Below, piece after piece: positions 15,075-35,194 of a DNA stretch of 64,000 bases. A program made the translations under genes and the position numbers. The stretch's first letter is position 1, and each line of letters opens with the position of its first letter. The notes under the pieces were generated by a model. It was not told where the DNA came from and made no database searches. It was given only the letters and a program-made list of their open reading frames with translations. The stretch covers positions 226,144-290,143 of the forward strand of contig JBBSXN010000005.1 in assembly GCA_038045765.1 (NCBI GenBank), written 5' to 3'. The DNA comes from Nanobdellota archaeon. Its GTDB lineage: Archaea > Nanobdellota > Nanobdellia > Pacearchaeales > GW2011-AR1.

Positions 15075-18000
15075 ATGATGCAAAAGAGGGCATTGAGTTA
15101 TTTATTTTTTAGCTTCGTCGCTGTTTTACTTTTAGTTTCAGTTGTGTCTGCTGTATGGTATAATCCTAATACTTGGTTTGAAAGTAAAAATAACGTTAGA
15201 TTAAGTCCTCCTGCTGAAAATAGTATTTTTGTTAATGCTGGTTACCTTGGACAATTAAATGATACCACTGCCCCGTATTCTTTTTCTCCTGGAGATGGAA
15301 ATGATTTTACTTTTTCTTTACAATTTAATAGTGCTTCTGGCGTCACTATACAGCGTATGAGTTTTTCTCATACAGGTTATACCAATGATGAGTATTGGAG
15401 AACTTATGGAAACCTTGCGAGTGTTTATCCATTAGTAATATTTGATTCTTCTGGAAATAAAATAAATAACGTTATGGTAGAGCCAGTTTTGACAGTGAGT
15501 TCCGGCGTACAAAATTATAGATTCTATATTCAACCAGGATACAATATATTTATGGGTGGTGCTTTAACTATTATTTTGAGTAATGGAGATGCAGTAACTC
15601 TTAATATTCCTGCAGGTGTTGGACAGACAGTTAGTTATGGAACATATGGTCAAGGCGGAGGAGGAAATCCAAATGCATGTACCTCATTTACATATGGTGA
15701 TTGGACTCCAGCAACATGTTCATATGGAAGTCAACAAACTAGAACTGTGACTGGTTCTCCGGCTGGATGCACTGGTGGAAGTCCTGAAGGAAGTTCAAGA
15801 ACTTGTCCAACCTGCACAGATAGTGATGCAGACTCGACACATCTTACTGGTTTGAACTTTGGTGTTTTTGGTACAGCAACCTATTACGCTGGAATAAGTC
15901 AGAGTGATTATTGTGGTAGCCCTTCAGCTGGACATGCAAATATATTATTTGAGTCTTATTGCAGACCAAGCGATGGAACTCCATCTACTGAATATTATTC
16001 TTGTGAGTATGGATGTGCAAGTGGAAGATGTTTAGATGCTCCTGTTGTTGCTTCTTGTACTGATTTGAATGTCACCACGAAGGCTTTGATTAATAGTAGA
16101 TTTGTTTATAATTCTGCTACTGGAAAATGGGCTGATAGCGATGGAGATTTGCTTCATTTGAATAGCAATGATTGGGTGAATAAGAGCCAATATGTAATCC
16201 TAGTTGCTGACAATGGAAGACAAGGCATTTATGAAATTACACAACTTACAAATAGTTCTTCTACTACTATTCCGAGTGATGATGAAATAACTTTGAAGGA
16301 TATGTCAACTGGGGCTTCAACAACTGCTAAAGCTATCACTGAAGGTGCTGGAAATATAACTCTGCTAGGAGCAAGTTATCAGTATAATTATAGAGGAACA
16401 CAAATTATCCCAGAGAGATCTAGACAAGTTAAGTTTAATTCTATGAAAGATTATTCTTCTTGTAGTATTTATACAGCGCCGACTTGTACTGATAGCGATG
16501 GTGGATTGAATTATAATGTTAAAGGATATACTAATGGAACAGATGCTAATGGGAACAAAGGTATTGCTACAGATACATGTGTTGATTCTTCTCCTGCAGG
16601 TTCTGTTGTGATGGCAGGTCCTGATTTAGTTGAAGTTTATTGTGATAACTCTCTTGCGAGTGAAAGAAGAACAACTTGTCCGAATGGATGTTATGATGGG
16701 GCTTGCGTTTATGGGGCTAATCAAGAAATTAGTTTGACTAATGTAAATAATATTGCTAATTTTAATCTTGGTAATGATTTAATGAAGGTTAAGTTACTTG
16801 CTGCTACAGATGTTTCTGCAACTATTGAGATTATTGATGGTCAAGAAGGTGTTGGTGCAGAAATAACTGAAGGAACTTCCAAAGTCATTGGAGGAGTTAA
16901 TGTTTATCTTGTCAGTGTTGATGAAAATACTGCACTTAATAGTATAAGTGCAGTCGTAGTTTTATCCTTAGAGCAAGTTTGTAAGGAATATATAGCAGAT
17001 ATAAAGAATCCTTCTGACTTCATCAAGAGTGGTTTGGCATTTGAATTGGATGGAAATGGAAGTTATACTGGTTCTGAGTGGGTTAAAGGTGGAAGCGGAT
17101 ATAAGGAATATTCTTATGATGCTAATTATGCTAACTGGAGAAATAACCATGATGGTAAATCTTATTACTTTGGCAAGACTGTGAAAGTGTTTGATGATGT
17201 TTCTTTTGATGTTAAGAAAATATTTGATGAGATTATTGAATCTGGTTTATGTGTAGAAAGAGAGTTTAATGGTGAATCTGCTTATATTTGTGCTTATAAT
17301 GGCTTAACAGGATCTAATGATTATAATTCTATAATTTGGTTTAATGATAATGTAATGGTTGTTGTTGATGTGGCTATTTGGGCTAAGGCAGTAAGTAACT
17401 CCGATATTAATGAGATTAATGACAAGAACTTGAATTCATTGGTAAGAGATATACAAAATAATCAGTATAAAGATATTAGTGAGAATTTTGAGTTAGATAG
17501 TGTGTTTAATTCAATTGTTGGAGATGATTTGCAATTGTGTTCATCAGATGTTTCTAATGATGGTGGATTTACCTTTGGAGCTTATTGCAAGATAGAACCG
17601 GTTGTGTGTCCTGAATATGGAAGACAGGTTGAAAAGTGTTATCGTTATGTAAATGGTAAAGAAGTTGTTAATGAGAAACAACTTTATTGTTCTCCTGGAG
17701 TATGTTCGGGATGTATGGTTCCTAGATGGATGGGATATGATTTTGCTGGAAGCAAGACTGAAAGCGTTTGTATTCCTTATGGAACAAGATTAGCTAATTC
17801 TCAAGATTCAGGTTCTGAGAGAATTTATGAAGGGTATTATACTGAAGGAGATAAGGAATACCTTAATTTGACTATATTTGATACAAGTTCAGGTTATTTG
17901 GATTTAGATATTGATGGTGCTGTGTTTAAGGGAGAGATATATGAATCAGCTATAGTCGATGCTGGCGAAATAATATTTACAGTTAAGGAAATATTTACTT

Positions 18001-18362
18001 CTGAAGAAGAAGGAGATAATGATGCGGAAGGATATATTGAAATAAGTATCGTTGAGAGCTTTGATGCTTACTGTAAGTATGATGGTGATTTGTATGAGCA
18101 GAAGGGTGATGATGCTGAGTGTCAGAATAACTATGAATGTTCAAGTAATGAGTGTAGGACAGGACAATGTGTAAATACTTATGTTGGTGTTTCACAGAAT
18201 ACGAATATACTTGTAAAGATAATATGTAGAATTGTTAATATTCCTCCATTTGGAGATGAGGATAGTTACAATCAATGCTTGTTAGAGTATGCTGGAGGAA
18301 GCGACGGAGGAACAAGTTCAGGTGGTTCTAATGGTGGGGGAAGCGGTGGATCTTCCGCTTAA
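15075..18362 (+). CDS. giant secreted protein (1095 aa), paralogue 1: signal peptide, conserved N-terminal domain, TSP1-like 4-Cys module, conserved C-terminal Cys module, Gly/Ser tail
   Basis: The signal peptide and leader MQKRALSYLFFSFVAVLLLVSVVSAVWYNPNTWF is shared with 29348 and 32696. ACTSFTYGDWTPATCSYGSQQTRTVTGSPAGCTGGSP is one 4-Cys module. CQNNYECSSNECRTGQC lies near the C-terminus. The probable true start is 15078. Confidence 0.7.
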   Translation: MMQKRALSYLFFSFVAVLLLVSVVSAVWYNPNTWFESKNNVRLSPPAENSIFVNAGYLGQLNDTTAPYSFSPGDGNDFTFSLQFNSASGVTIQRMSFSHTGYTNDEYWRTYGNLASVYPLVIFDSSGNKINNVMVEPVLTVSSGVQNYRFYIQPGYNIFMGGALTIILSNGDAVTLNIPAGVGQTVSYGTYGQGGGGNPNACTSFTYGDWTPATCSYGSQQTRTVTGSPAGCTGGSPEGSSRTCPTCTDSDADSTHLTGLNFGVFGTATYYAGISQSDYCGSPSAGHANILFESYCRPSDGTPSTEYYSCEYGCASGRCLDAPVVASCTDLNVTTKALINSRFVYNSATGKWADSDGDLLHLNSNDWVNKSQYVILVADNGRQGIYEITQLTNSSSTTIPSDDEITLKDMSTGASTTAKAITEGAGNITLLGASYQYNYRGTQIIPERSRQVKFNSMKDYSSCSIYTAPTCTDSDGGLNYNVKGYTNGTDANGNKGIATDTCVDSSPAGSVVMAGPDLVEVYCDNSLASERRTTCPNGCYDGACVYGANQEISLTNVNNIANFNLGNDLMKVKLLAATDVSATIEIIDGQEGVGAEITEGTSKVIGGVNVYLVSVDENTALNSISAVVVLSLEQVCKEYIADIKNPSDFIKSGLAFELDGNGSYTGSEWVKGGSGYKEYSYDANYANWRNNHDGKSYYFGKTVKVFDDVSFDVKKIFDEIIESGLCVEREFNGESAYICAYNGLTGSNDYNSIIWFNDNVMVVVDVAIWAKAVSNSDINEINDKNLNSLVRDIQNNQYKDISENFELDSVFNSIVGDDLQLCSSDVSNDGGFTFGAYCKIEPVVCPEYGRQVEKCYRYVNGKEVVNEKQLYCSPGVCSGCMVPRWMGYDFAGSKTESVCIPYGTRLANSQDSGSERIYEGYYTEGDKEYLNLTIFDTSSGYLDLDIDGAVFKGEIYESAIVDAGEIIFTVKEIFTSEEEGDNDAEGYIEISIVESFDAYCKYDGDLYEQKGDDAECQNNYECSSNECRTGQCVNTYVGVSQNTNILVKIICRIVNIPPFGDEDSYNQCLLEYAGGSDGGTSSGGSNGGGSGGSSA

Positions 18363-18368
18363 AGTTTC

Positions 18369-21300
18369 ATGAAGAGTAGTTATTATATTTTATTTTCTCT
18401 TATTGCTTTATTTGCTTTTGTTAGTTTGAGTTTTTTTGTTAGTGCAGTTTATCAAAATGATTTTAATTCTTTTGATAATGATTTAAAAAATAATATAAAT
18501 CATTCTAATTTTATTGACTTAAATAGAGATTTATATAAAATATCTTCTGAAGAGATATCTTTGACTAGTAGAGTTGCTTCTATTTTTGGTGTTGGAAAAG
18601 CAGTTGAGAAGAGAAATAGATTAGTTGCTGAATCTTTGGAAAGAAAAGAGGCTATGATTGACTTAGCTGAAGAAAATCCTGGCTTATTTCTATCCCAAGC
18701 AATTCCAGAGGAAGAACAGAATGAAAAATTTGAAGATGTTAAAGAAAATTTAGAAAAGGAAACAAGTCAAGAAGGTACATTATTGATTATGGAGAATCCT
18801 CATTTTCATGATCCTGTAAATGTGAATCATGAAGGCATGGATAATTTCAATTACTTCTTAGATACTAAAGATGAGAGGTATAATTTGAAATTCGCTGATG
18901 GTTCTGCTCCCGGTGCTTTTTCAGGATCTAGAGTTAAAGTTAGTGGAGTAGAGCTTGGAGATTATCTTGCTACTTCAAGTGCTGAAGCAAGCGGTTTTGA
19001 AGTTGTTGAAAGTTCTCCCCCTATAAGGGCTGAAAATTATGGTGTCCAGAAGATAGCTATAATTATTACAAAAGCTCCTGGAGATGAAGATTATGATCTA
19101 CCTTTTATAGAAAGTCATATGCAAAAAATAAATGATTATTATAATGAAGTAAGTTATGGGAGGGCTAGTTTGGAATGGGATGTTTATGGGCAATATGATG
19201 TTGAAGGTAGTGGATATGTTTCCATTACTCCTGAGATAGATTTAGATATAAATTTCAGTAAGTATTCTAGAATTATTTCAATTGATGAAAGAAATTGTTG
19301 GGGTTGTGCAGGTATAGGTATCTGGTCTCATTCCACTAATGAAGGAGAATTGAATATATCTGAGACTTGGGTTAAACCAGTAATTTTTCAGTCTTCTAAT
19401 TATTATAGTGTAATCGGACATGAACTAGGCCATAATTTTGGAGTGTTACATGCTAATAATTTAAGATGTGGAGATAAATATATAGATGATTTTGATAAAT
19501 GTATAAGCTATGAATATGGAGATCATTTTGATATAATGGGTTCAAATATTTATAGCTTCGAGACAGGCCATATTAACTCTTTATATAAAGAAACTATAAC
19601 TTGGCTTGGAAGCAATGAGATTGTTGAAGTAAGCTCGGATGGAATTTATACTTTAAATGCTTTTGAAAACTTAAGCGATAGAACCTCTTTAAAGATTCCT
19701 CGTATATTTGATGAATTTAGAAATGGTGAACGTTTTTATTATTTAGAATATAGAACTCCTGTTGGTCAGGATTCTTTTATTAGCAATACTCAAACTCAAA
19801 ACGGTCCTCAAGTTAGAATAGATAAATATTATTCAGGCTGGGGTGGCGGAGGAGATTCTCAGCTTCTTGATATGAATCCAGGAATATATCCTAGAAATGT
19901 CGGAATTAGTGTTGGGAATGTATTCTTTGATTCTGCAAGCAATGTTGAAATTAGAACTCTAGAGGTTAATTCTAAAAATGCTACTGTTCAAGTTAAAGTA
20001 AGCAATAAGACTTGTATTAGAAGAGCACCTACATTTAATATTTATCCTCATAGTATTTCAGGTACTTTGCATGAGACTTTTTATTATTCTTTTGAACTAA
20101 TAAACAATGATGAAAGTATATGCCCTGCTAAAGAAATATACCTTAATAATTCTAATCGAGAAGTCTCATTTTATATGGAGTCATATCCTTCGTATATATC
20201 TTCTAGTCCAGATTACCCTGCTTTAATAGCATCTGGAGAAAAGATAGAAGGCGTAATTATGCTTTATCCTAATTACTTTAGTAATGGTGGCGAATTAAGC
20301 ATAGATATATTGAATGCTGAGTCTGGAAGTATGTATGCCTCTCAAAATTTAGAATATCATGTTATTCCTGCTAATAGTGAACCAGTCAGTTTTGCAGGAG
20401 AAGATAAAGCAAGAAAATTCTTTTACGTTAGTAATTTCTTTGGTAATGGTTATTACTTGATAGATGAAGATGGTAAGGTTTATAGAAGAGGGTCAACAAG
20501 GTTTACAACAGATAATGTTAAAGAATTTCCATTTGGAAATAATATAAAAACGGCCTTTATTGATGGAGGAGAAAGTATTGTTATTTTAGATTCAGACAAT
20601 AAATTTTATGAAGGCGGTAGGAATATCATTTCTAGAATAAATAAATTTGACAAGATGCAAATTGATAATGATTTACCTTATTCTTATCATAATGTTCAAG
20701 ATATAGATATTTATGAATCAATATATGATAATTATAATAGTATTAGAAATCTTTTAATTTTACTTGATGATGGGTATGTATTTGCTAGTTCTGATATAAT
20801 AGATAGAGATAGTTGTATAACTTGGGATGGAAGAAGAGATTTAGAAAGAGAGGATGAAAGTCATGCCATAGCCCTATTACCTTGGAATGATTTTAATAAA
20901 CCTGATGGAGGCATTTATTCTCTTGAGACTATAGGATACTATGTCTTAAGTAAAGATGGCACAGTTTATGGATGCGGAGATGTGAATATATCTTATACTC
21001 ACTTTAATCAGCCATTACCTGCTGATTTGGGAACTGAAGATAGGACTGCTGTTGCTTTTGCACTTGATCAAGAAAAGGGCATTGTAATGGTTGATTCATA
21101 TGGTGAAGTTTATACTTCTGGAACTTTGACTCATCAAGGAAGTCCTTCATTTGGGCAGAATATCGCTAGAGATATACAGATTCTTCCTAGTAATGTAGAT
21201 GATGGTGAGGAAGGTGTGTCTGGTGAGGATGTTGCAGGATATGGCATCCTTAAAGGAACTGGGGAAATAATATCTTGTTCTGAAGGAAGAGGATGTGGAA

Positions 21301-21857
21301 CTGATATAATTATCTGTAATGATGATAAAGATTGTGATGATTTGAATGATGATACTGTTGATACATGTATTAATCCTGGCACTGTTGAAAGTTATTGCAG
21401 AAATGAAGGTGGATCTGGAAAGACTTGCACTGATAGTGATGGATTTGATATTACTGCACTTGGAAATGTGAATTATGATGGTGCTGTTTATAATGATGAG
21501 TGTTTAAGCGAGAAAGAAATATTGGAATACACTTGTGCTAGTTCTGGTTGGTTTAGCAGTGAGAAGGAAGTTAAAGCAAATAATAGAGAGTGTCAGTATT
21601 CATGTAGTGGAGGAAAGTGTGTCGATCAGGATAAGAATGTGCAGAGAGTATGTTCTGATAATGATGTTAGTAATAAATTGGATGTATATGGGGCTGTTTT
21701 GTTCAAAGGAGATGAATACAAAGATTCATGTGTTGAATCTGGATTAAGTGTAAAACAGTATTTCTGCGTTGATGACAAGTTAAGGAATTTTGTAAAGAGA
21801 TGTGCAAATGGGATGAGATGTATAAGTGGAAGTTGTCAGTATATTCCATCTGCTTAG
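18369..21857 (+). CDS. secreted metzincin-type zinc metalloprotease-like protein (1162 aa) with Cys-rich C-terminal modules
   Basis: N-terminal signal peptide. HELGHNFGVLH (19419-19451) matches HExxHxxGxxH. The C-terminus carries CQYSCSGGKCVD and CANGMRCISGSCQY modules. The gene starts 7 nt after the 15075 gene, which suggests an operon. Confidence 0.65.
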   Translation: MKSSYYILFSLIALFAFVSLSFFVSAVYQNDFNSFDNDLKNNINHSNFIDLNRDLYKISSEEISLTSRVASIFGVGKAVEKRNRLVAESLERKEAMIDLAEENPGLFLSQAIPEEEQNEKFEDVKENLEKETSQEGTLLIMENPHFHDPVNVNHEGMDNFNYFLDTKDERYNLKFADGSAPGAFSGSRVKVSGVELGDYLATSSAEASGFEVVESSPPIRAENYGVQKIAIIITKAPGDEDYDLPFIESHMQKINDYYNEVSYGRASLEWDVYGQYDVEGSGYVSITPEIDLDINFSKYSRIISIDERNCWGCAGIGIWSHSTNEGELNISETWVKPVIFQSSNYYSVIGHELGHNFGVLHANNLRCGDKYIDDFDKCISYEYGDHFDIMGSNIYSFETGHINSLYKETITWLGSNEIVEVSSDGIYTLNAFENLSDRTSLKIPRIFDEFRNGERFYYLEYRTPVGQDSFISNTQTQNGPQVRIDKYYSGWGGGGDSQLLDMNPGIYPRNVGISVGNVFFDSASNVEIRTLEVNSKNATVQVKVSNKTCIRRAPTFNIYPHSISGTLHETFYYSFELINNDESICPAKEIYLNNSNREVSFYMESYPSYISSSPDYPALIASGEKIEGVIMLYPNYFSNGGELSIDILNAESGSMYASQNLEYHVIPANSEPVSFAGEDKARKFFYVSNFFGNGYYLIDEDGKVYRRGSTRFTTDNVKEFPFGNNIKTAFIDGGESIVILDSDNKFYEGGRNIISRINKFDKMQIDNDLPYSYHNVQDIDIYESIYDNYNSIRNLLILLDDGYVFASSDIIDRDSCITWDGRRDLEREDESHAIALLPWNDFNKPDGGIYSLETIGYYVLSKDGTVYGCGDVNISYTHFNQPLPADLGTEDRTAVAFALDQEKGIVMVDSYGEVYTSGTLTHQGSPSFGQNIARDIQILPSNVDDGEEGVSGEDVAGYGILKGTGEIISCSEGRGCGTDIIICNDDKDCDDLNDDTVDTCINPGTVESYCRNEGGSGKTCTDSDGFDITALGNVNYDGAVYNDECLSEKEILEYTCASSGWFSSEKEVKANNRECQYSCSGGKCVDQDKNVQRVCSDNDVSNKLDVYGAVLFKGDEYKDSCVESGLSVKQYFCVDDKLRNFVKRCANGMRCISGSCQYIPSA

Positions 21858-21882
21858 TATGGTGTGGGATCGGTAATTACTA

Positions 21883-22365
21883 TTAATAGTATTTATCTAA
21901 AATAAACCTCAACTCTGGGTGGAATTTGTCAGAAGTTTTTAGGAGAATCTTTATTTTGTCTAGAGATATGAATTCCATATTTTCTACTTCGTCTTTGTTG
22001 AATTTGAAAGGTCCTTCACTTTCTGCTTGATATATTGAAAGGAATTTATGTATTTGTTCTTTCCCTAGATATTCAGATTTAGCTATTAAAGAAAGAGGCA
22101 ATTTTATGCCTAATTCTTCTTCGAGTTCTCTTAAAGCGCCTTGCTGGTGAGATTCTCCTGCTTGAACATGGCCTCCTGCAGAAGTTGAAAAGAATCCTGG
22201 GCAGAAAGACTTATTTTTGCTTCTTATCTGTAAGGCAATTTCTCCTTTTTTATTAAAAATTAAAACATGTGCTATTCTATGAGGCAATTTTTTTTTGTAA
22301 ATCTCCGAATATTCTTCTTTTCCTATTACTTCATCCTTATCATTTACTATGTCTAAATATTCCAT
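21883..22365 (-). CDS. Nudix hydrolase
   Basis: Nudix box GGHVQAGESHQQGALRELEEELGI. Confidence 0.7.
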   Translation of the reverse strand: MEYLDIVNDKDEVIGKEEYSEIYKKKLPHRIAHVLIFNKKGEIALQIRSKNKSFCPGFFSTSAGGHVQAGESHQQGALRELEEELGIKLPLSLIAKSEYLGKEQIHKFLSIYQAESEGPFKFNKDEVENMEFISLDKIKILLKTSDKFHPELRFILDKYY

Positions 22366-22371
22366 CTTAAT

Positions 22372-22884
22372 TTATTTTGAAAACAACTTAATAGTCTTTT
22401 CTATTTCTTCTTTTATACCTTGGATGCAGTCGTAAGCTTTTACTTCGTGTTGGTTTACCCATTTATAATTTGAGAATGAATCTTTTTCTAGCTTGACTTC
22501 ACCTGATTTGTATTTTGCTGCAAATTTGACAAGAATTACTGGAATTCCATCTGGCCTGATGAAAGCTACTGAATTTATGTATACAAAATCGGAGTGGATT
22601 TCTATTCCTGCTTCTTCTTTAGTTTCTCTTATCAATAATTGTTCTATTGCATTTTCATAGTCTAAGATGTCTCCGTTTATTCTTGTTGGATTGTTTATTG
22701 GTAGGTCTTTCCATTCTAATTTACCACCAGTAACTGCGTATTTATTTGGATGAGCTTTCTCTCTCTCAGAACGTTTTAGAATTAAACAGCGTTTGTCTGA
22801 TTCTCTGTAAACTATTACATTAGCTACAACATAGAATAGTTTATCCTGTTTCGCTTTCTCAAGAGATATTTTATTAGAGGGCAT
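22372..22884 (-). CDS. Nudix hydrolase (second, divergent)
   Basis: GGKLEW....IRETKEEAGIEI is a Nudix-box-like segment. Confidence 0.55.
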   Translation of the reverse strand: MPSNKISLEKAKQDKLFYVVANVIVYRESDKRCLILKRSEREKAHPNKYAVTGGKLEWKDLPINNPTRINGDILDYENAIEQLLIRETKEEAGIEIHSDFVYINSVAFIRPDGIPVILVKFAAKYKSGEVKLEKDSFSNYKWVNQHEVKAYDCIQGIKEEIEKTIKLFSK

Positions 22885-22946
22885 AAAAATATTTGTTAAT
22901 AGAGTATATAATTATTGTTACAATTATCTGAAAAAATTTGAAAGGT

Positions 22947-23123: not shown

Positions 23124-23189
23124 ATTAATTTTAGCTTAAATGAGTATATAAATATTTTGGCGATTTTTGTGTCAATTGAGAGTAATGAA

Positions 23190-23894: not shown

Positions 23895-24010
23895 ATAATT
23901 TATAAGATTTTATGGTTTAAATATCTTAACTTTTTATAATCTTTATCAATAACTTCAAACTCTATTGAAGTTAAAAGTGGGTTTATAAATAAGTTTTAAT
24001 TGAGTAGAGT

Positions 24011-24628: not shown

Positions 24629-24671
24629 CTTTAGTTAATTTATATTTTGAAATGAAAGGAGGTAATGAATA

Positions 24672-26565: not shown

Positions 26566-27605
26566 TGAAGAAAAATGAATTAGAGATTGAGGCTTTTGGA
26601 AGAGTTCAAGGAGTAGGTTTTAGACTTACTGTTGAGGCCCATGCTAAGAAAAAAGGACTAACTGGTTTTATTTTCAATAGAGATATAGGGAGTGTAATTA
26701 TATTAGTTCAGGGTGAAAAGAAAAAAATAGAAGATTTTCTTGTTTGGTTGCAGACAAATCCTGGTTTTTCTAGAATCGATAGTCTGCAGTATGGTTGGAG
26801 GGCGAATATTAAAGTTTATGATGATTTCAGAATAATTAGAAAGGGTAATTTAATATCTGAACAAGCTAGAAATTTTTATAATTTGGGAAAATACATTTTA
26901 GGAAAGAAGATAGTAAAAGTTCCTAAACATGTATCTATAATTCCTGATGGGAATAGAAGATGGGCTAAAAGACAAGGAATGCATTCTGAATTTGGACATT
27001 ATAAAGCAATAAATGTTCAACATATGTTAGATATATTTCATGAAGCGCAGAATATTGGAATTAAGTACTTAAGTTTTTGGGGATTTTCAACAGAAAATTG
27101 GAAGAGAAATAAAATTGAAGTTAAAATGCTCTTCAAATTGTTTTTTGAATTTGCTGATTTGTTTAGAAATAGTGATTTAGCTGATAAAGTAAGATTCAAA
27201 CATATTGGAAGGAAAGACAGGTTGCCTAGTAAACTAATTTTAGAGTTAAATAAATTGGAAGAAGAAACACAAAATAATTCAGAACTGACTTTTCTTCTTT
27301 GTCTTGATTATGGTGGAAGAGATGAGATTGTTAGAGCGGTAAATAAGATGATTAAAGATGGAAAGAAAAAGATTAGTGAAAATGATTTGAATAACTATCT
27401 TGATACTGCTGGAGTTCCTGATGTAGATTTGATAATAAGAACAAGTGGAGAGTGTAGAACTTCAGGATTTATGCCTTTTCAAGCAGTTTATGCTGAATTG
27501 TGCTTTATTCAAAATGATTTTCCTGATTTTACTGCTGATGATTTAAGAAAAGCTGTTGAGTGGTATAATGGAAGAGATAGAAGATTTGGTGGGAATAGCA
27601 AGTAG
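26565..27605 (+). CDS. uppS: acylphosphatase / cis-prenyltransferase (undecaprenyl/dolichyl diphosphate synthase) fusion protein
   Basis: The N-terminal ~90 aa form an acylphosphatase fold (EIEAFGRVQGVGFR...GFIFN). The remainder is a UPPS-type cis-IPTase (HVSIIPDGNRRWAKRQG ... RTSGECRTSGFMPFQ). Confidence 0.75.
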   Translation: MKKNELEIEAFGRVQGVGFRLTVEAHAKKKGLTGFIFNRDIGSVIILVQGEKKKIEDFLVWLQTNPGFSRIDSLQYGWRANIKVYDDFRIIRKGNLISEQARNFYNLGKYILGKKIVKVPKHVSIIPDGNRRWAKRQGMHSEFGHYKAINVQHMLDIFHEAQNIGIKYLSFWGFSTENWKRNKIEVKMLFKLFFEFADLFRNSDLADKVRFKHIGRKDRLPSKLILELNKLEEETQNNSELTFLLCLDYGGRDEIVRAVNKMIKDGKKKISENDLNNYLDTAGVPDVDLIIRTSGECRTSGFMPFQAVYAELCFIQNDFPDFTADDLRKAVEWYNGRDRRFGGNSK

Positions 27606-27723
27606 TTCTTAAATTGAGAAATAATAAAGAAGATAATTGTTATCTATAATATGATATTGAGTTCATTATCCTATATTTAATCGCGTATTGTAATAATTAA
27701 TATTTCTGATTTTATCCAATAAA

Positions 27724-28170
27724 TTAAGTGCAAGGCTTTATTTCTTTTCTATCTAATTCACAGCTCGATACTGAAATAATTAATTCTCCTGCCTCAAAGG
27801 TTGAGGGTGCTAGATTATATAATTTAGATTCTCCTTGTTCTGGTAACTTGCAATTTGCACATGAACCTCCGACCTGCCAGCGCTCTTTTTTGTTTTCAAT
27901 TACATGTGTGAAATCTATACTTGATATTTGCTCAGTGTTGATATTTCTTTTTATTGTTGTTTTAATTTCATTGTTTACTGAATTGTAGCAGGCACTTTCA
28001 ATTTTAAGAGCCTGATTTATTTTTAAATCTAAGCAGGAGCTTTCAGGAGAAAGCTGGACTGATTTTACTGATTTAATTACATAAGTAGATATTATAGTCA
28101 CAGCTATAATGCTTACGAGTATAATTAGTGTGGTTGCAATTACACTTGATAGCGCTTTTTTATTCATCAT
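27724..28170 (-). CDS. archaeal type IV pilin-like protein (class III signal peptide)
   Basis: N-terminus MMNKKALSSVIATTLIILVSIIAV matches the archaeal pilin consensus (K-[GA]-[LI]-S-P-V-I-A-T...). Confidence 0.5.
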   Translation of the reverse strand: MMNKKALSSVIATTLIILVSIIAVTIISTYVIKSVKSVQLSPESSCLDLKINQALKIESACYNSVNNEIKTTIKRNINTEQISSIDFTHVIENKKERWQVGGSCANCKLPEQGESKLYNLAPSTFEAGELIISVSSCELDRKEIKPCT

Positions 28171-29315
28171 TCTATTTTACAAGGCCTCCCATCTATATTA
28201 TCAATTTGTAAAGTGGCTATCTTCTTGTCTAGTGTTTTATCATATATTTCAAGCGTCTTTGCTGATTCTAGAGTAGGTATTCTGATATATAACTCTCCTT
28301 CGTAATTGTATGTCTCTCCAGAAATTTCTTCTTCTCCTGATTGTTGTGAATCGGTGAATATTAATTCAGGATTGAAAGAATCTTCCGCTAGTGTTTCAAA
28401 ATTTTCATTTAAAATATTAAATGAGAAAGAACCTTCACCATTTTTACCAGTACATCCTTGCTCTATATGTCTATCGTTAATTGTTAAAGAACCAGAAGAA
28501 TAATTTGCTGATATTAGATAGTAAAATTGATTTTCACAATTTGTTTCTGATTGAATTGCATTTCCAGTTATTGTTTTTCCTGAGCTTGTTTTTATTTTAC
28601 TTTCTATTAAAAATTCATTGAATTTTCCAAGACTTGTTGAATAGAGAGTTTTCATTAATCCAGAGTCTATTGAACGGTAATAATTGCTTTCTGAACAGCC
28701 TTGAAAACAGCCCTCATTTAATTCATTGAACTCTGAGCAGTCTTTTACACAATTTTTTACATTTCTAGGTAAGTTTGCAGGAGTATATTCTTCAGCAAGG
28801 TTTGCAAACGAATGACTGAATTCATGTGTAATAACTGATTTTGGATTTTTTGTGTTTATACTCATCACATTAAGATAAGAAGAGCTTCTTATTCTTTCTT
28901 GGTCTTCATTTAAAACAAAAATATAATCATTTGGACAGGCACTCGCCTTTCTTATTAAATCTCTTGAGTAGCAGTATAATGCTATTTCTTTATAGTATTC
29001 ACATTCTATTTTCTCATCTATGTAAAAGACATTAAATGATTCTTTTAATTTATTCAGCGGAGAAGTTGATAATAAGTAATCTATATATTCCTTAGTTTGA
29101 TTTTCTGATGCGAAAAATAATAGGTTTATTGATGCGGATGGATTGCTGTAGAGTTGATTACAGGTTTCTTTAGTTTCTGGGCTCAGATTTGTTGGATAAA
29201 AAAAGTAAATTGCTAACCCTATTATAATTAATAGACCTATAATTGAAGAAATTATAATTGACTTGTTTTCCATTGATTCTTTAGAATAAACTGACTTAAA
29301 TAGTTTATTAGACAA
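28167..29315 (-). CDS. membrane-anchored secreted protein with HExxH zinc-binding motif
   Basis: N-terminal TM segment. The motif is HEFSHSFANLAEEY. The ORF overlaps the pilin gene by 4 nt. Confidence 0.45.
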   Translation of the reverse strand: MSNKLFKSVYSKESMENKSIIISSIIGLLIIIGLAIYFFYPTNLSPETKETCNQLYSNPSASINLLFFASENQTKEYIDYLLSTSPLNKLKESFNVFYIDEKIECEYYKEIALYCYSRDLIRKASACPNDYIFVLNEDQERIRSSSYLNVMSINTKNPKSVITHEFSHSFANLAEEYTPANLPRNVKNCVKDCSEFNELNEGCFQGCSESNYYRSIDSGLMKTLYSTSLGKFNEFLIESKIKTSSGKTITGNAIQSETNCENQFYYLISANYSSGSLTINDRHIEQGCTGKNGEGSFSFNILNENFETLAEDSFNPELIFTDSQQSGEEEISGETYNYEGELYIRIPTLESAKTLEIYDKTLDKKIATLQIDNIDGRPCKIE

Positions 29316-29347
29316 ATGTTTATATATTATATACTGATACTTATCAG

Positions 29348-32300
29348 ATGCAAAAGAGGCTAGTGAATTATTTATTTTTTAGTTTTGTTGCTGTTTTACT
29401 TTTAGTTTCAGTTGTTTCTGCTGTTTGGTGGAATCCTAGTACTTGGTTTAATGGAAGAGGAATAACTGGAAATCCAGTAGCTAGTGCAACAGATTATACT
29501 TCTAATTTAGTAGCTTACTGGAAGTTTGATGAGGCTTCTTATTCTGGTGGCTCTGGTCAGGTAAAAGATTATCTTGGATTTAGTAATGGCACTCCAGTTA
29601 GTTCTCCAACTATTGTACCAGGATTGAAAGGTAATGCTGTTAGATTTACTGGTGCTGGTGGTCAAAAAATATTAATTTCCACTACTCCTACTAAATTTAA
29701 TTTAGGTAGTTTTACTCTATCTGCATGGGTTAAGACAAGTGACGCTGGAACTGGTAGAAGGAGAATATTTAGTCAGCAAAATAGTGATTATTATGGTATT
29801 GCTTTAAATGGTAATAATCTTGAGTGTTTCTCCTCTTTAGACTTCGGAGTTACACAATACAATAGCCCTTCGACTGCTGTTCTAAATAATAATCAATGGC
29901 ATCATGTATCTTGTGTAAGAAATACTGGTATTAATAAATTCTTATTATATATTGATGGGGTAAATGTTAAAAATAGCTCTATTACTGGTTCTTCTAGCTA
30001 TGCTATGGGTGCTGGAGGCATTTCCATAAGCCAATATCTTGGCGGAAATTCTGAAATATTTACTGGGCTTATTGATGAGCTTAGAGTTTACAATACTGCT
30101 TTAACTAGTACTCAAATCAATCAAGTGTATGATTTTGCTAAGCCTGCTAGTAGTGCTCAAGCATGTACTTCATTTACATATTCGGAATGGAGTGTTTGTT
30201 CTACTTTAGGACAGCAAGCAAAAACAATTCTTACTAGAACTCCAGATGGATGTACTGGAGGAAGTCCTGAAGCTTTGACAAGGAGTTGTACTTATTATGA
30301 TCCTAATAGAATTTATGTTAATTATACTGTTTCTAGTATGATTTCACCTTATTATTTAACTAATGCAGTTGTTAATTTATCTTATGCTGGAGCAAGTTAT
30401 CCATGTAATTTTATCTCAAAACCTACTAGTTCATTTCCTAATTATGGTATTTATAGGTGTAATGTTCCAAGACTTGGTCAAACAGGAATTTATTATACAT
30501 TATCTTCTTCTGCTCCAGGTTATGCTCAAGATATTGCTTCTTTAGGAAATTCTTTTAATGCTGGAGAATATACTGCTTCAATTATTTTGAATCCATTACC
30601 TCCAACTTGTACATCATTTACATATTCAGACTGGAGTACATGTACATCAGCAGGTTCTCAGACAAAGACAATTCTTACTAGCAACCCATCTGGGTGTTCT
30701 GGTGGAACACCTGAAGCTTTGACACGGAGTTGTCATCCAGACGGAGGTATTGCTACTGCTAGCTTAAGTGGATTGACTGCTATATATGATGGAACACCAA
30801 AATCTATTAGTGTAACAACTAACCCTCCAGGTATATCTACAATAGTGACTTATAATGGTGTAACTACTCCTCCAACTGCGGCAGGTTCTTACGCTGTCAC
30901 AGTAACTGCTAGCCCTCCAACTTTAGCAACTGCTCCTATTTTTACAATGAATACAATGGCAGCATTAGTTATCAATAAAGCAGATCAAACTATTGTATTT
31001 CCCACTATTTCTCCACAAGTTACAGCTGTTCCTTTCGGTTTGAGTGCTACCTCTAGTTCAGGATTACCTGTAAGTTTTAATATTCAAGCAGATCTTGTTT
31101 CAGGTTCTGGAACAATTATAAATAATGTCCTTACTGCTACTGAAGCAGGAGTTGTTACTGTTCGTGCTAGTCAAGCAGGAAATAATAATTATAATCCTGC
31201 TCCTTTTATTGATAAAACAATTTCAGTGAGTTCTCCTTTTAAAACAGTGCAGATTGGTGAGTGGGCTAATGTTGGAGATTCTATACAACTTGCTGGTGCT
31301 ACTTTAGCTAAAGTTCAAAGTATTTCTAGTTCATCAAGTGCAAGCTTTTTTGATAATGATAATGTAGTCTTTCATCAAACAACTTCTGGTGGACCTATAA
31401 CTGGAAAAACTTTTAATGCTATTTCTAAAGGGATAGCTTCTACTCATAATGGTCCTGATTCTAATCATCTTCCTTATTTTGAAGGCGGAATAAATGGTAA
31501 GTTCTATAATGTAGAATATAGAGGAGTTACAGGTTCAACTGCAAATTCTCCTCAAGCTAGACTAGTAGCTATTGTTTGCACTGGAGGAGATTGGATTGGA
31601 ACTGTTAGTCCTTGCACTCCTAGTGGAAATAAAACTATAGAATGGACAAAATCTCCTGCTTATTGTGATTCAACTTTGGCTGGAAGTGTAAATCATCCTG
31701 CGAGTGAAGTTGTTACTTGTACTTATGTTCCTCCAGTTTCTACTCCTATTGCTAATAGTACCTTCCTTTATTATATCAAGAATCAAAGTGGTGCGTCAAT
31801 TCCAGGAGTACAATATAATTTGAAGAATTCAACTGGCGGAGTGTTTGATGATAATTGTATATTTGATGTTTCATCAGGATTGATGTGTGTTAATTTATTC
31901 GCAGGTAATTATTTGTTGAATGTTTCCGCTTCTAATTACTTTTCACAAGTCTTGTCTTTATCTTTAACTCAGAATTATAGAGGTCCTAATTATCCAAATA
32001 ATATTATTACTTTGTCTGGTGCTAGTACTGGAACTACCACTTCTACAATTGGCGCGAATGTTGCTGGATGCAGTGATACAGATGCTGATGCTGCTAATCT
32101 TGGTGGAGTTGATTATAATGAACGAGGAACATTTACTGCTCCTGCAGAGAGTAGTTGGACTGTTGCTCAGAGGACTGATTATTGTGTTAGTGCTATGAGA
32201 TTAGCTGAATATTCATGCGATCCTGCACCTGCTGGTTTTGATTATAATGGTGTTGAAGTAGATTGTCCTGGTGGATGTTCTGAGGGAAGATGTATCGGTT

Positions 32301-32653
32301 CCGGAACTGGTGGAGAAGGAACAACTACTGGAACTGGTGGTGGAACTACAACTACAACTACAACTGGAACTGGCGGATCAGGTACGACTGAAGCAACTAC
32401 TGGAGGAGTTGTTTGTGCAGATGGATGTTCATTAGAAAGTGGACAGTGCGTTCCTCTTGGATATAGAATTGGTGGAAAATATTGTGATGTGAGCAAGAGT
32501 TTGGTAACTTATAAAGCCGATTCAGCTGATTGTGAAAATAATTTTGAATGTGGAAGTAATGTTTGCGTCTCAAATAAATGTATTGAGGCAGGATTTTTGC
32601 AGAAGATTAGTGATTGGTTTAGTAACCTATTTGCAACATCTTCAGCATCTTAA
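29348..32653 (+). CDS. giant secreted protein (1101 aa), paralogue 2: LamG domain, two TSP1-like 4-Cys modules, MBG/Ig-like domains, Thr/Gly linker, conserved C-terminal Cys module
   Basis: Shared leader MQKRLVNYLFFSFVAVLLLVSVVSAVWWNPSTWF. LamG_3 region (LVAYWKFDE...LRVYNTALTSTQINQVY). Modules ACTSFTYSEWSVCSTLGQQAKTILTRTPDGCTGGSPEALTRSC and TCTSFTYSDWSTCTSAGSQTKTILTSNPSGCSGGTPEALTRSC. YDG/MBG-like segment (LTAIYDGTPKSISVTTNPPGISTIVTYNG...AGSYAVTVTAS). C-terminal CENNFECGSNVCVSNKC. Confidence 0.7.
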   Translation: MQKRLVNYLFFSFVAVLLLVSVVSAVWWNPSTWFNGRGITGNPVASATDYTSNLVAYWKFDEASYSGGSGQVKDYLGFSNGTPVSSPTIVPGLKGNAVRFTGAGGQKILISTTPTKFNLGSFTLSAWVKTSDAGTGRRRIFSQQNSDYYGIALNGNNLECFSSLDFGVTQYNSPSTAVLNNNQWHHVSCVRNTGINKFLLYIDGVNVKNSSITGSSSYAMGAGGISISQYLGGNSEIFTGLIDELRVYNTALTSTQINQVYDFAKPASSAQACTSFTYSEWSVCSTLGQQAKTILTRTPDGCTGGSPEALTRSCTYYDPNRIYVNYTVSSMISPYYLTNAVVNLSYAGASYPCNFISKPTSSFPNYGIYRCNVPRLGQTGIYYTLSSSAPGYAQDIASLGNSFNAGEYTASIILNPLPPTCTSFTYSDWSTCTSAGSQTKTILTSNPSGCSGGTPEALTRSCHPDGGIATASLSGLTAIYDGTPKSISVTTNPPGISTIVTYNGVTTPPTAAGSYAVTVTASPPTLATAPIFTMNTMAALVINKADQTIVFPTISPQVTAVPFGLSATSSSGLPVSFNIQADLVSGSGTIINNVLTATEAGVVTVRASQAGNNNYNPAPFIDKTISVSSPFKTVQIGEWANVGDSIQLAGATLAKVQSISSSSSASFFDNDNVVFHQTTSGGPITGKTFNAISKGIASTHNGPDSNHLPYFEGGINGKFYNVEYRGVTGSTANSPQARLVAIVCTGGDWIGTVSPCTPSGNKTIEWTKSPAYCDSTLAGSVNHPASEVVTCTYVPPVSTPIANSTFLYYIKNQSGASIPGVQYNLKNSTGGVFDDNCIFDVSSGLMCVNLFAGNYLLNVSASNYFSQVLSLSLTQNYRGPNYPNNIITLSGASTGTTTSTIGANVAGCSDTDADAANLGGVDYNERGTFTAPAESSWTVAQRTDYCVSAMRLAEYSCDPAPAGFDYNGVEVDCPGGCSEGRCIGSGTGGEGTTTGTGGGTTTTTTTGTGGSGTTEATTGGVVCADGCSLESGQCVPLGYRIGGKYCDVSKSLVTYKADSADCENNFECGSNVCVSNKCIEAGFLQKISDWFSNLFATSSAS

Positions 32654-32695
32654 CTTATGGAAAATATTTATATATCTGCAAGAAATGTTTCTTTA

Positions 32696-35194
32696 ATGCA
32701 AAAGAGATTTCTTAATTATTTATTTTTTAGTTTCGTTGCTGTTTTACTTTTAGTTTCAGTTGTTTCTGCAGTTTGGTGGAATCCAAATACTTGGTTTGAA
32801 GGAAGAGGAATAACTGGGAATGTTGTATCTCCTAGTCAAATTTTTGTTAAAGTAGCTTATTTAGGGAAGATAGATAATAAGGCTGCTCCTTATTCTTTTT
32901 CTCCTGGTGCTGGGAATGATTTTAGTTTTTCTTTACAATTTGATAGTCCTTCCGGTCTTAAAATACAACGAATGAGTTTTACTCGCACTAGTAGTGGCGA
33001 GTATTGGAGAACTTACGGATCTAATGACCCTATTAATGTTTACCCAATTGTAATTTTTGATTCTAATAATCATAGAATAAACAATGCTATGGTTGAGCCA
33101 GCTTTAATTGTCCCTTCTGGCTTGCAAAATTATACTTTTTATTTTGAACCAGGAAGTCCGAATTTTGTAGGAGGAACTTTAACAATTCATTTACAGAATG
33201 AGGTTACCCCAATAACTATTAATGTTCCGGCAGGAGTTGGACAGATAATTACATATGGTTCATATGATTCACATGTATGTACTTCATTTACTTATAGTGC
33301 TTGGACTCCTGCAATATGTTCACTTGGAAGTCAGCAGACTAGAACTGTAACTTCAAGAAGTCCAGCAGGATGTACGACTGGAGTAAGTCCAGTATTAACT
33401 CAAGGTTGTAATGTTCCCACATGTACTTCATTTACATATTCAGATTGGGGTGTATGTCAATCTAATAATCAACAAGCCAGAACTGTGACTGCAAGCAGTC
33501 CGGCTGGATGCACTGGTGGAAGTCCATTATTATATAGGGGTTGCACTCCTTTTGTTTTACCTGCTAATGATAATTTTGTTAATGCTATTTTGATAAATAA
33601 TTATGCTTCAAGTACTGGTACTGTTAATGTAAATTTGAATGGTGCGGGAACTGAGAGTGGTGAAAATAACTTAGCAGGAAACACTGTTTGGTATAGATTT
33701 AATGCTCCTGGGGCAGGTAATTTAAATATTAATTATAATTCTCCTACTGCTGGTGGAATGACTTTAGATTCTAATTTGAGATTATATTCTGGAAGTAGCT
33801 TGTCTTCTCTTATTTTATTGAGAGAGAATTCAATGGTTAATCATGGTCAGACGGTTAGTTTAAATGTTGCTCAACCTGGTAATTATTATTTACAGTTTGG
33901 AAGAAGTGCAGGTAATTTTGGAGCAGGTACTGCTACATTCACTTATGCTTTTCAATCTCTGGCTTCTGGAGCATGTATAGATACTGATGTTAATGCTACT
34001 TATCCTGATGGATTGAATTATTATCTTACTGGTTCTGCTAGCGGTTCTAGTGGGATAGGTTCTAGTGATTATTGCGGTGCAGGATATTATTCAAATACAG
34101 TCTATGAATCTTATTGTAGAGCTTCTGATAATTCAGTCACTACCGCTTATTATAATTGTCCTACTGGAACTGTTTGTACCAATGGTGCTTGTTCAGTTGG
34201 AAGTGCAGTAGTTTCACCTACTCCAGTAGCTTGTACATCATTTAATGTTGGTTCATATAATGCTTGTAGTGGTGGTCAGCAGACTAGAAGTGTTACTGGA
34301 GTTCCTGCAGGGTGTGTTGGAGGAGTAACGCCTCCGGCTAGTTCTCAAGCTTGTTCAGAGCCTAGTATTCCAACTTGTACTGATGCAGATTGGACTTATG
34401 TTGTTGTTGCTCCATCTACTTGTTCTGCTGGTTATTCAAAAGAAAGAAGATGGAGTAAAACTGGAAATTGTGAAGGAGGAATAACTCATGATACCTCTGA
34501 ATATTTACCTTGCAGTTATCCTTATGGTCCTCTTCCTTGTTCTTCATATACATATGGTGAGTGGACTCCTGCTAATTGTGCTGTTGGAAGTCAACAAACT
34601 AGAACAGCATTAGGGTCTTATGGAGGAGGTTTAGGAGGAGTTTATTATGCACAGTGCATTGGAGGAAATCCTGCAGCCATTTCAAGAATTTGTCCTGAAA
34701 ATACTCAGACTGTTACTGATACTAGTTGTTCTTATGGTGATTCTCCTGTTTGTTCAAATGATGAGATTACATATTCAAATTCATGCAATGCTGTAGCTGC
34801 TGGTGCGACTGTCTCTTGTCAGGGTGAGTGTCCTTGTCCTGCTGGAAATCCTGCTCCTAGCCCTGGTGTCGTTCCTGTAGCTGTTCCTGTTCCTACAGTT
34901 ATAACTCCTCCGACCGGTACTGGAATTGCTCCAGTAGTTTCTCCGACAGGTACTTGTTCTAGTGGATGTGAGTTAGATAATAATTGTGTAGATTTTGGAC
35001 ATAGATCGAGTGCAAAGTATTGTGCTTTGTCAGGCATGGTTGACTTTAAGGATATTGGTGTAAGTTGCGATAATAGTTTTGAATGTTCAACTAATTCATG
35101 TATTTCTGGAAAATGTTCCGAAGCGAATATAATTCAGAATATTGTTAAATGGTTTAAAGATAATTGTCCTTCATTTATTTGTTCTGTTAAATAA
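32696..35194 (+). CDS. giant secreted protein (~832 aa from this start), paralogue 3: conserved N-terminal domain, four TSP1-like 4-Cys modules, conserved C-terminal Cys module
   Basis: The ORF track begins at 32657. Homology to the paralogues (MQKRFLNYLFFSFVAVLLLVSVVSAVWWNPNTWF) and a TATA box at 32666-32675 place the start at ATG 32696. Modules VCTSFTYSAWTPAICSLGSQQTRTVT, TCTSFTYSDWGVCQSNNQQARTVT and others. C-terminal CDNSFECSTNSCISGKC. Confidence 0.65.
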   Translation: MQKRFLNYLFFSFVAVLLLVSVVSAVWWNPNTWFEGRGITGNVVSPSQIFVKVAYLGKIDNKAAPYSFSPGAGNDFSFSLQFDSPSGLKIQRMSFTRTSSGEYWRTYGSNDPINVYPIVIFDSNNHRINNAMVEPALIVPSGLQNYTFYFEPGSPNFVGGTLTIHLQNEVTPITINVPAGVGQIITYGSYDSHVCTSFTYSAWTPAICSLGSQQTRTVTSRSPAGCTTGVSPVLTQGCNVPTCTSFTYSDWGVCQSNNQQARTVTASSPAGCTGGSPLLYRGCTPFVLPANDNFVNAILINNYASSTGTVNVNLNGAGTESGENNLAGNTVWYRFNAPGAGNLNINYNSPTAGGMTLDSNLRLYSGSSLSSLILLRENSMVNHGQTVSLNVAQPGNYYLQFGRSAGNFGAGTATFTYAFQSLASGACIDTDVNATYPDGLNYYLTGSASGSSGIGSSDYCGAGYYSNTVYESYCRASDNSVTTAYYNCPTGTVCTNGACSVGSAVVSPTPVACTSFNVGSYNACSGGQQTRSVTGVPAGCVGGVTPPASSQACSEPSIPTCTDADWTYVVVAPSTCSAGYSKERRWSKTGNCEGGITHDTSEYLPCSYPYGPLPCSSYTYGEWTPANCAVGSQQTRTALGSYGGGLGGVYYAQCIGGNPAAISRICPENTQTVTDTSCSYGDSPVCSNDEITYSNSCNAVAAGATVSCQGECPCPAGNPAPSPGVVPVAVPVPTVITPPTGTGIAPVVSPTGTCSSGCELDNNCVDFGHRSSAKYCALSGMVDFKDIGVSCDNSFECSTNSCISGKCSEANIIQNIVKWFKDNCPSFICSVK

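Follow-up and report, generated by a model that had tools for sequence, protein, structure and literature searches.

In the vsp and vpma families of Mycoplasma, as described in PMC2268961, a highly conserved 5' untranslated region and signal-peptide region precedes unrelated downstream coding sequence, and this 5' unit is kept across species. In this study, a locus of partly comparable architecture was analysed in a 64,000-nucleotide stretch of contig JBBSXN010000005.1 from a Nanobdellota archaeon (hereafter the window, to which all coordinates refer), in which three genes for large secreted proteins, g15078 (15078-18362), g29348 (29348-32653) and g32696 (32696-35194), all on the forward strand, as are their TATA boxes and the gene g18369 described below, begin with a near-identical leader that ends in a short aromatic motif. 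The Mycoplasma families are the closest evolutionary analogue, and in both settings a small-genome, host-dependent organism appears to diversify its surface proteins by recombination. While the Mycoplasma Vsp, Vpma and Vlp proteins are lipobox (AAKC) lipoproteins whose genes undergo Xer1 site-specific inversion behind a single promoter, the genes described here encode no Cys at +1, lie on one strand and each have their own TATA box, and no recombinase or inverted repeats were found near them when the open reading frames (ORFs) of the window were scanned. Exchange at this locus appears to be evolutionary, between strains and paralogues, rather than a demonstrated phase-variation switch as in Mycoplasma.

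The closest functional analogue is the lipoprotein export signal (LES) of Bacteroidetes, the sequence K-(D/E)2 right after the lipidated Cys, which, according to PMC5080379, decides surface localisation and is portable between cargo proteins. Both the LES and the leader motif are short and sit directly after a cleavage site; however, the LES is acidic, belongs to lipoproteins of diderm bacteria and is experimentally proven, whereas the leader motif is aromatic (three Trp and Phe), belongs to archaeal non-lipoproteins and has a putative function only. Among other surface signals, YSIRK-G/S and KxYKxGKxW are lineage-specific elements that occur on many surface proteins and bias their deployment, and WxL proteins use Trp motifs for non-covalent surface retention. 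While YSIRK and KxYKxGKxW sit in the n/h-region of the signal peptide and get removed, and WxL is a C-terminal domain of about 160 amino acids (aa), the leader motif sits after the predicted cleavage site, and neither the YSIRK/KxYKxGKxW nor the WxL pattern was found in the leader proteins.

In polymorphic toxins, a short motif (VENN in CdiA, PxxxxDPxGL in Rhs) marks the boundary where recombination swaps downstream modules, and the breakpoints at the present locus likewise fall within about 30 nt after the leader motif. However, CdiA and Rhs vary in a C-terminal toxin accompanied by an immunity gene, whereas here a constant leader of 35-43 aa precedes a variable, whole adhesin-like body, and there are no immunity genes. 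Surface-protein families that diversify behind a conserved leader cassette are known in kind, and the aromatic post-cleavage motif is undescribed: a literature search found the motif string in no paper, and a preprint on DPANN surface architecture does not mention conserved leaders.

Results

The leader of three adjacent surface-protein genes

The first-pass annotation of the window had described a near-identical leader on three genes, and the translations bear it out. The proteins starting at 15078, 29348 and 32696 begin with MQKR(ALS/LVN/FLN)YLFFSFVAVLLLVSVVSAVW(Y/W)NP(N/S)TWF, that is, MQKR-x3-YLFFSFVAVLLLVSVVSA followed across the predicted cleavage site by VW[WY]NP[NS]TWF. A 26-nt core of the leader DNA, GCTGTTTTACTTTTAGTTTCAGTTGT, is present in exactly three copies in the window against 0 expected from shuffles, and a six-frame search found the leader peptide motif nowhere else in the window. 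The leader similarity is a real, non-chance feature. In g15078 the signal-peptide coding part (MQKRALSYLFFSFVAVLLLVSVVSA; KR n-region, 18-residue hydrophobic core and V-S-A at -3 to -1) occupies 15078-15152 and the motif VWYNPNTWF, the predicted mature N-terminus, 15153-15179. The corresponding segments are 29348-29422 and 29423-29449 (VWWNPSTWF) in g29348, and 32696-32770 and 32771-32797 (VWWNPNTWF) in g32696, where the strain from Hainich groundwater has VWWNPSTWF. An extension common to g29348 and g32696, GRGITGN, follows at 29453-29473 in g29348.

An identity of about 90% over about 100 nt had been estimated for the leader DNA; the measured values are 86-90% over 105 nt and 85-90% over 102-126 nt, while the next 600 nt or so are 42-43% identical where the bodies are unrelated and 68% identical where they are homologous (g15078 and g32696), a difference between leader and downstream sequence with Fisher p values of 4e-4 to 4e-25. 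At identical leader residues the same codon is used in 23-26 of 28-31 cases, against about 15 +/- 2.5 expected from the codon usage of the window; between g15078 and g32696, codons agree at 21/29 identical residues of the leader and at 72/119 of the homologous N-domain downstream, fractions that are not clearly different. Nei-Gojobori estimates of synonymous (dS) and nonsynonymous (dN) divergence were 0.28-0.60 and 0.04-0.09 for the leader, 0.75 and 0.30 for the N-domain, and 1.09 and 0.54 for the C-terminal module. A leader dS of this size means that homogenisation is not recent, and the low dN together with the lower dS therefore points to far stronger amino-acid constraint and somewhat more recent shared DNA ancestry, not to freshly homogenised sequence. 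The comparison of 5' ends with downstream regions that the annotation had proposed thus places the leader above its downstream sequence in nucleotide identity and below it in dN (0.30-0.54 elsewhere). An RNA-level cause of the nucleotide conservation was considered and rejected, as RNAalifold on nine leader mRNAs gave -0.95 kcal/mol with six pairs and no real covariation.

Conservation of the motif in related archaea

A degenerate DNA pattern for AVW[WY]NP[NS]TWF, searched in 596 Gb of species-representative genomes, matched one locus, with about 0.03 chance matches expected if uniform base composition is assumed. This locus (L004) encodes a 397-aa protein in a Woesearchaeota metagenome-assembled genome (MAG), the leader of which reads ...VFFFALLSVLFVSLASA before and VWWNPSTWFEKS after the predicted cleavage site. 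A shorter pattern retrieved further proteins from JGI metagenomes: L006, of 323 aa and on an unplaced contig, with MKKTSQAVLILLLISFLLPKLAMA before and SWWNPSTWF after the site, and L007/L011, of 596 aa and with an F5/8 type C domain, with MQKRAGNLLLFTLVFLFLVSVVSA before and VWWNPNTWFEGRGITGN after it. A profile of leader plus N-domain gave 39 matches among 1.84 billion protein representatives, those bearing the leader being the window proteins, P0002, P0003, P0010, P0013, P0015/P0041 and P0034. A degenerate form of the leader, GASA followed by GWWGSSLSRGITG, was found in Diapherotrites. The search of related archaeal genomes suggested by the first-pass annotation was therefore positive, the motif being present in L004, L006, P0003, P0034 and others.

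Nine distinct leader cassettes from about six related archaeal lineages were aligned with the cleavage site as anchor. Mean pairwise identity was 0.34 in the h-region, 0.76 at -3..-1, 0.80 in the motif (+1..+9) and 0.12 over +10..+20. The motif recurs in different codons behind quite different signal peptides (L004, L006, P0003 and P0034), and it is portable across four body types. Because identity is 80% in the motif against 34% in the h-region and 12% in the next 11 residues, the motif and not the signal peptide is, as judged from this alignment, the conserved object, and it is under purifying selection as protein. The idea of a shared secretion signal with a motif right after the signal-peptidase site is supported by these data, since a small-x-small triplet always precedes the motif, the motif is much better conserved than the h-region, and other lineages share it.

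The string W[WY]NP[NS]TWF is also found within the first 3-13 residues of phage ORFs (L009 1919-1942(-), L010 1464-1487(-), L021 120-143, L022 4236-4259(-) and L023 2280-2303(-)), which include a T4 gp20-like portal (MTWYNPSTWF), a T5-like portal (MSWYNPNTWF) and two small ORFs (MGEFVWYNPSTWF and MVWYNPSTWF). The number of these matches is near chance expectation, while their N-terminal placement is not. Whether phage portals share the motif at their N-termini was considered and set aside: in T5-like portals 'TWF' is the only part that aligns, to a conserved [SD]W[ILF], and in T5 and Ceto portals too nothing but 'TWF' aligns.

Exchange of 5' ends between genes and genomes

Contigs of relatives were recovered and then compared with the window segment by segment. 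The Hainich strain (L001, L014) is 97.8% identical to the window over 21309-38171 and 84-91% identical over 7566-18470; this step in identity suggests recombination between related populations, with a boundary that would lie inside or beside g18369, the gene following g15078. A sister species, species B (L012/L013, L016 and L011/L007), is syntenic with the window, and its flanking genes are 77-91% identical.

In these comparisons leaders and bodies have different histories. The gene g15078 and its species B orthologue P0003 are 81% identical from +105 on, 59% identical in the signal peptide (p=3e-5) and 33% identical upstream, and the upstream region of g15078 is 68-72% identical to those of P0041 and P0013 against 42% to that of its own orthologue. 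Within species B, P0003 and P0010, a LamG-body gene pair about 8 kb apart, share 78% identity over -60..+102 and 43% after it, their bodies being unrelated. P0041 (F5/8-C body) and P0013 (LamG body) are positional homologues, each found beside a homologue of the gene at 28167-29315(-), and are 78% identical over upstream region and signal peptide, 97% over the first 60 nt and 42% in their bodies. In the window, g29348 and g32696 have leader and GRGITGN in common (90% in the leader) and then diverge abruptly to 42%, the break lying just past GRGITGN. In other genomes, promoter-plus-leader units common to different bodies are 72-77% identical. Homology breakpoints fall at the motif or up to about 30 nt after it in five comparisons. 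Because leader and body relationships disagree across genomes, with breakpoints at the motif, an exchange of 5' ends between genes, by recombination or cassette exchange, is supported as the probable course of events. Of the gene conversion of the 5' end that had been suggested, exchange therefore survives through the discordance of leader and body, and recent homogenisation does not, the leader dS of 0.28-0.60 standing against 0.75-1.09 in other homologous segments.

In place of the tandem g29348-g32696, species B has one 596-aa gene, as expected if unequal recombination takes place between the directly repeated leaders. The comparison of window and Hainich strain gave no ground to infer a recent micro-conversion: the whole 7.5-18.5 kb region is 84-91% identical, so that the 87% identity between the leaders of g15078 and P0002 is unremarkable.

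Predicted signal peptide and promoter

The leader carries all the sequence features by which a Sec class I signal peptide is predicted. Its n-region is M-Q-K-R or M-K-K-[SRT], and hence charged, in all leaders; its h-region is uninterrupted, with Kyte-Doolittle means of up to 2.99 over 15 residues and up to 2.58 over 19 residues; and V-S-A, A-S-A or A-M-A, a [VA]-x-A site, directly precedes the motif in 12/12 leaders. With about 18-20 residues, the h-region is rather long for a signal peptide. By the -3/-1 rule alone, cleavage would fall between V-S-A and the first Val of the motif. No Pfam-A or NCBIfam model matches the leader (residues 1-45).

Four other signals were considered and rejected. 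For an archaeal class III (prepilin/archaellin) signal, K-R-A-L is present only in g15078 and P0002, while g29348 has KRLV, g32696 KRFL and P0003 KKSI, without Gly or Ala at -1. For a lipobox, +1 is Val, Ser or Gly, and there is no Cys in the first 190 residues of g15078 or g32696. For a Tat signal peptide, the n-region is QKR or KKS, with no RR. For PGF-CTERM/archaeosortase or another C-terminal transmembrane (TM) anchor, there is no hydrophobic segment besides the leader and no NCBIfam match. The leader is the sole segment of each protein with a 19-residue Kyte-Doolittle hydropathy above 1.6, and the hydropathy scan found no C-terminal TM segment in the leader proteins, which end in a Gly/Ser tail or in a Cys module plus a short amphipathic helix.

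Relative to the ATG, a TATA box, TTTATATAT, occupies -29 to -21 in g15078 (15049-15057), g29348 (29319-29327) and g32696 (32667-32675, inside the 42-nt gap after g29348), as the first-pass annotation had noted. Its further claim of a homogenised promoter has to be abandoned for the window, as outside the TATA box the three upstream regions are 53-55% identical, which is background, and TTTATA stands at exactly -29 before five other window genes too (24011, 38098, 43862, 46302 and 61930). To judge from these genes, promoters of leaderless transcripts in this genome ordinarily have their TATA box at -29. Of the conserved 5' unit of the Mycoplasma families, the signal-peptide region has its counterpart in the window and the promoter region does not, while promoter-plus-leader similarity reaches the 72-77% given above in other genomes. 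An A9 run lies just upstream of the g15078 TATA box at 15038-15046 (A10 in the Hainich strain, A8 upstream of P0041), and is not a repeat tract inside the promoter spacer as in phase-variable families. Automatic gene calls begin g32696 at 32657 (845-847 aa); because the TATA box falls within the N-terminal extension that the ORF callers added, and all homologues agree, 32696 is kept as the true start, as originally annotated.

Gene bodies and predicted structure

The product of g15078 is a secreted protein of 1094 aa with 36 Cys (MEK6911021.1, 'hypothetical protein'), composed of leader, Ig-like N-domain, CTSFTY and CTDSDG Cys modules, a C-terminal Cys module and a Gly/Ser tail. Its N-domain (15210-15653) would be an Ig-like beta-sandwich of no named family, the fold being taken from the model of the g32696 paralogue. 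The product of g29348 has 1101 aa (MEK6911033.1, 'LamG-like jellyroll fold domain-containing protein [Nanoarchaeota archaeon]'), in the order leader, LamG (Laminin_G_3), CTSFTY modules, MBG_3, C-terminal Cys module and amphipathic helix. That of g32696 has 832 aa and 42 Cys, in the order leader, GRGITGN, Ig-like N-domain, CTSFTY modules, PPC-like domain, Kazal-like segment and C-terminal Cys module. Pfam recognises LamG and MBG_3 in g29348 and gives a weak PPC match in g32696 and no match in g15078. The four large genes, g18369 included, are Cys-rich (26-42 Cys, and 32-42 in each of the three leader proteins), carry no hydrophobic segment apart from their leaders, and have small Cys modules in common: CTSFTYSDW...Q.RT...GC.GG.P, CTDSDGG.NY and, at the C-terminus, C.NN.EC.SN.C. 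A further N-terminal domain had been ascribed to the first and third leader genes, and g15078 and g32696 are indeed 60% identical over 256 aa that comprise the leader, a domain of about 150 aa and the first Cys module.

A repeat of about 45 aa, C-[TS]-S-F-T-Y-[SG]-x-W-x(2,3)-C-x(3,5)-Q-[QT]-[RK]-T...GC-x-GG-x-P...C, was observed in all three leader proteins (g15078 aa ~198-245; g29348 aa ~272-315 and 419-463; g32696 aa ~194-285, 510-555 and 612-666). We take it to resemble thrombospondin type 1 repeats in its W-S-x-C...Q-T-R-T spacing, and it has no Pfam match at E <0.01.

Residues 1-200 of g32696 were modelled with AlphaFold from a 27-row alignment, with a mean predicted local distance difference test (pLDDT) score of 83. 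In the model, residues 3-27 form one helix that ends at the first Trp, residues 28-45 (motif and linker) have a pLDDT of about 51-56 and are not packed on the N-domain, and residues 50-190 form a confident beta-sandwich. Because this stretch is of low confidence and unpacked, and because the motif precedes four different domain types, the motif is probably not part of a fold.

The partner gene g18369

The gene g18369 (18369-21857) encodes a secreted protein of 1162 aa with its own conserved leader, MKSSYYILFSLIALFAFVSLSFFVSA followed across the predicted site by VY. Pfam gives weak reprolysin/M6 metalloprotease matches, and HELGHNFGVLH is a metzincin signature, so that the protein is described here as a metzincin-type protease. 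A gap of 6 nt separates its start from g15078, no TATA box precedes it, and the two genes are thus probably co-transcribed. The proposal of a family in two tandem pairs was overstated, since g18369 is a protease without the leader of the other three. Nor are the pairs g15078/g18369 and g29348/g32696 equivalent, as g18369 has no promoter of its own while a separate TATA box precedes g32696.

The first ~100 nt of g18369, which encode its leader, and its last ~550 nt, which encode a C-terminal Cys module, are homologous to the same-position gene or genes in the Hainich strain and species B, and the region 21309-22000 is 84-89% identical to other strains. Where the window has the metzincin body, the Hainich strain and species B encode subtilisin-type S8 peptidases (L014 10186-14405; L012 13247-13843 with L016 3-3749), and window 18470-21309 is strain-specific, with no nucleotide homology to these S8 bodies. 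In g18369 too, therefore, the ends are constant and the body has been swapped.

Genomic context

The G+C content of the window is 27-37%, with a mean of about 32%, and the sole match of an Rfam scan is one tRNA. Housekeeping genes (TBP, ATP-dependent DNA ligase, deoxyhypusine synthase and GatB) are mixed with envelope biogenesis genes (GT2, GT1/GT4, WecG, Wzy, a flippase and three PMT_2 genes). Window proteins were matched exactly in 'Nanoarchaeota archaeon' MAGs (MEK69110xx) and in contigs of a Hainich groundwater 0.1-µm metagenome, and local synteny with the window is also seen in a Woesearchaeota MAG. The leader genes are best explained as encoding surface proteins, modular and rich in disulfides, of an archaeon of the Nanoarchaeota (DPANN, Woesearchaeota-like).

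A 5.7-kb segment, window 38171-43829, is missing from Hainich contigs L001/L003. It involves second copies of a membrane protein beginning MSFKRRALHKNAWKTWSLY (38098 and 43862) and of a PMT_2 glycosyltransferase beginning MEKENKLLNYIK (39876-41303 and 44509-45969), and these copies are further paralogues with near-identical N-termini. At 27724-28170(-) there is a gene for a 148-aa protein whose start, MMNKKALSSVIATTLIILV, resembles an archaeal class III (prepilin-type) signal peptide; this gene and a neighbouring one for a 382-aa membrane protein with a weak Peptidase_M64 match are conserved, in divergent orientation, beside the leader-bearing gene in species B.

Two short elements were also observed 5-15 residues past the N-terminal hydrophobic segments of window proteins. 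[LF]SP[DEPST] is found 6 times at residues 35-44, whereas the other ~16,000 aa contain it 2 times (ORFs 15078, 27724(-), 28167(-), 36977, 38098 and 43862), and ITG[NKR] 5 times at residues 33-48 against 2 elsewhere in window proteins (ITGN/ITGK in ORFs 29348, 32696, 46302 and 61930). They may be general processing or linker motifs of the envelope proteins of this lineage.

Discussion

We propose, at a probability of about one half, that the leader is a two-part N-terminal export unit, made of a signal peptide and a retention or sorting tag, that is exchanged as a cassette. The leader would be read from a leaderless mRNA with the TATA box at -29. Its first part (residues 1-25) would act as a Sec-type class I signal peptide, with KR in the n-region, a core about 18 residues long and V-S-A just before the cut, and its second part (residues 26-34, VW[WY]NPxTWF) would become the extreme mature N-terminus once signal peptidase cuts. 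There the motif would serve as a retention or sorting tag, most likely as a Trp-rich peptide that lies at the membrane-water interface or on an envelope polymer and so holds the exported protein on the cell; on the Wimley-White interfacial scale, the free energies of its nine residues add up to -3.8 to -6.7 kcal/mol. Surface retention or sorting is the most likely function that we infer from the sequence. The promoter and signal-peptide DNA would move as a cassette, both from one paralogue to another and from strain to strain, through homologous recombination or gene conversion, and the motif-coding stretch would form the 3' junction, with LamG, F5/8-C, the Ig-like N-domain and Cys repeats placed behind the same leader.

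Several points weigh against this proposal. The hydrophobic core of about 20 residues would suit an uncleaved signal anchor just as well. Neither a partner protein nor a sorting enzyme nor a co-occurring gene was found, and the motif is confined to a few DPANN lineages. Much of the leader nucleotide identity is amino-acid constraint plus AT-biased codon use, not recent conversion, as follows from the leader dS and from the 21/29 against 72/119 same codons. Species B is metagenome-assembled, and P0003, P0010 and P0041 were put in one genome by synteny, shared samples and similar divergence.

The first of these points leads to the alternative that survives best, which we regard as possible but distinctly less probable, namely that the leader is an uncleaved type II (N-in, C-out) signal anchor, and WWNPxTWF is an aromatic belt with a turn that ends the helix where the outer face of the membrane meets water. 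Transmembrane helices are often flanked by Trp and Tyr, and Asn-Pro is a helix breaker. The hydrophobic stretch Y8-V26, of about 19-20 residues, is enough to span the membrane, the single AlphaFold helix of residues 3-27 ends at the first Trp, the leader proteins have no C-terminal anchor, and other surface proteins of the window clearly use N-terminal TM anchors without an AxA site. However, a plain anchor needs no small-x-small triplet, and this triplet is invariant in the 12 leaders while the core varies (34%); moreover, the FFVSA-type ending is shared by g18369 and the S8 enzymes, neighbouring proteases whose release is expected.

The export-unit proposal can also be carried further. VWWNPxTWF might be a new N-terminal sorting or anchoring signal of Nanoarchaeota/Woesearchaeota-type DPANN, recognised by machinery or inserted into lipid, possibly that of the host, which would deploy interchangeable adhesin or lectin bodies at the contact between symbiont and host, and its coding stretch would double as a recombination junction for body swaps. 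This picture is speculative, and we consider it unlikely.

A little less credible still is that a dedicated enzyme for processing or sorting recognises the motif as a tag, in an N-terminal parallel to the exosortase/archaeosortase systems or the LES, and that the motif is modified or removed while the protein is sorted to the envelope or host contact site. A sharp conservation island exactly at +1 to +9 between variable flanks would suit such a tag, as would the portability of the motif over four body types, its restriction to a lineage like that of known sorting tags, and a second element (V[RK]LSP or ITGN.V) 5-15 residues downstream that is also enriched in other envelope proteins of the window. 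However, no candidate enzyme lies nearby, the neighbours being housekeeping or glycosylation genes, no Pfam or NCBIfam model matches, and only about three substrates were found per genome, few for a dedicated pathway.

That the motif has no function and its identity is the footprint of a recent 5'-end duplication or gene conversion is very improbable, and this reading is largely refuted by the conservation of the motif across lineages: same-codon use (23-26 against about 15 expected), the 26-nt core identical in three genes and a leader dS below that of other homologous segments speak for it, but in L004 and L006 the motif persists although its codons differ, which also argues against a recent horizontal transfer of the same DNA, and although the signal peptides are unrelated; within the leader, conservation is far higher in the motif than in the signal peptide, dS is not near zero, and g15078 and g32696 show no significant synonymous excess in the leader.

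Conclusions

DPANN archaea are thought to need physical attachment to their hosts. If the motif does no more than form an aromatic belt next to a signal anchor, what is left is a lineage-specific leader of the ordinary kind. If, as we favour, it is a sorting or membrane-insertion tag, it would be an N-terminal addition to the archaeal surface-anchoring signals, which are otherwise C-terminal, and a short, portable, conserved peptide at the predicted mature N-terminus offers a directly testable handle. Evolution by a constant leader and a swapped body is seen in three adhesin-like genes and, independently, in the adjacent protease gene, and it shows that the surface repertoires of such reduced genomes turn over through recombination at short conserved end modules.

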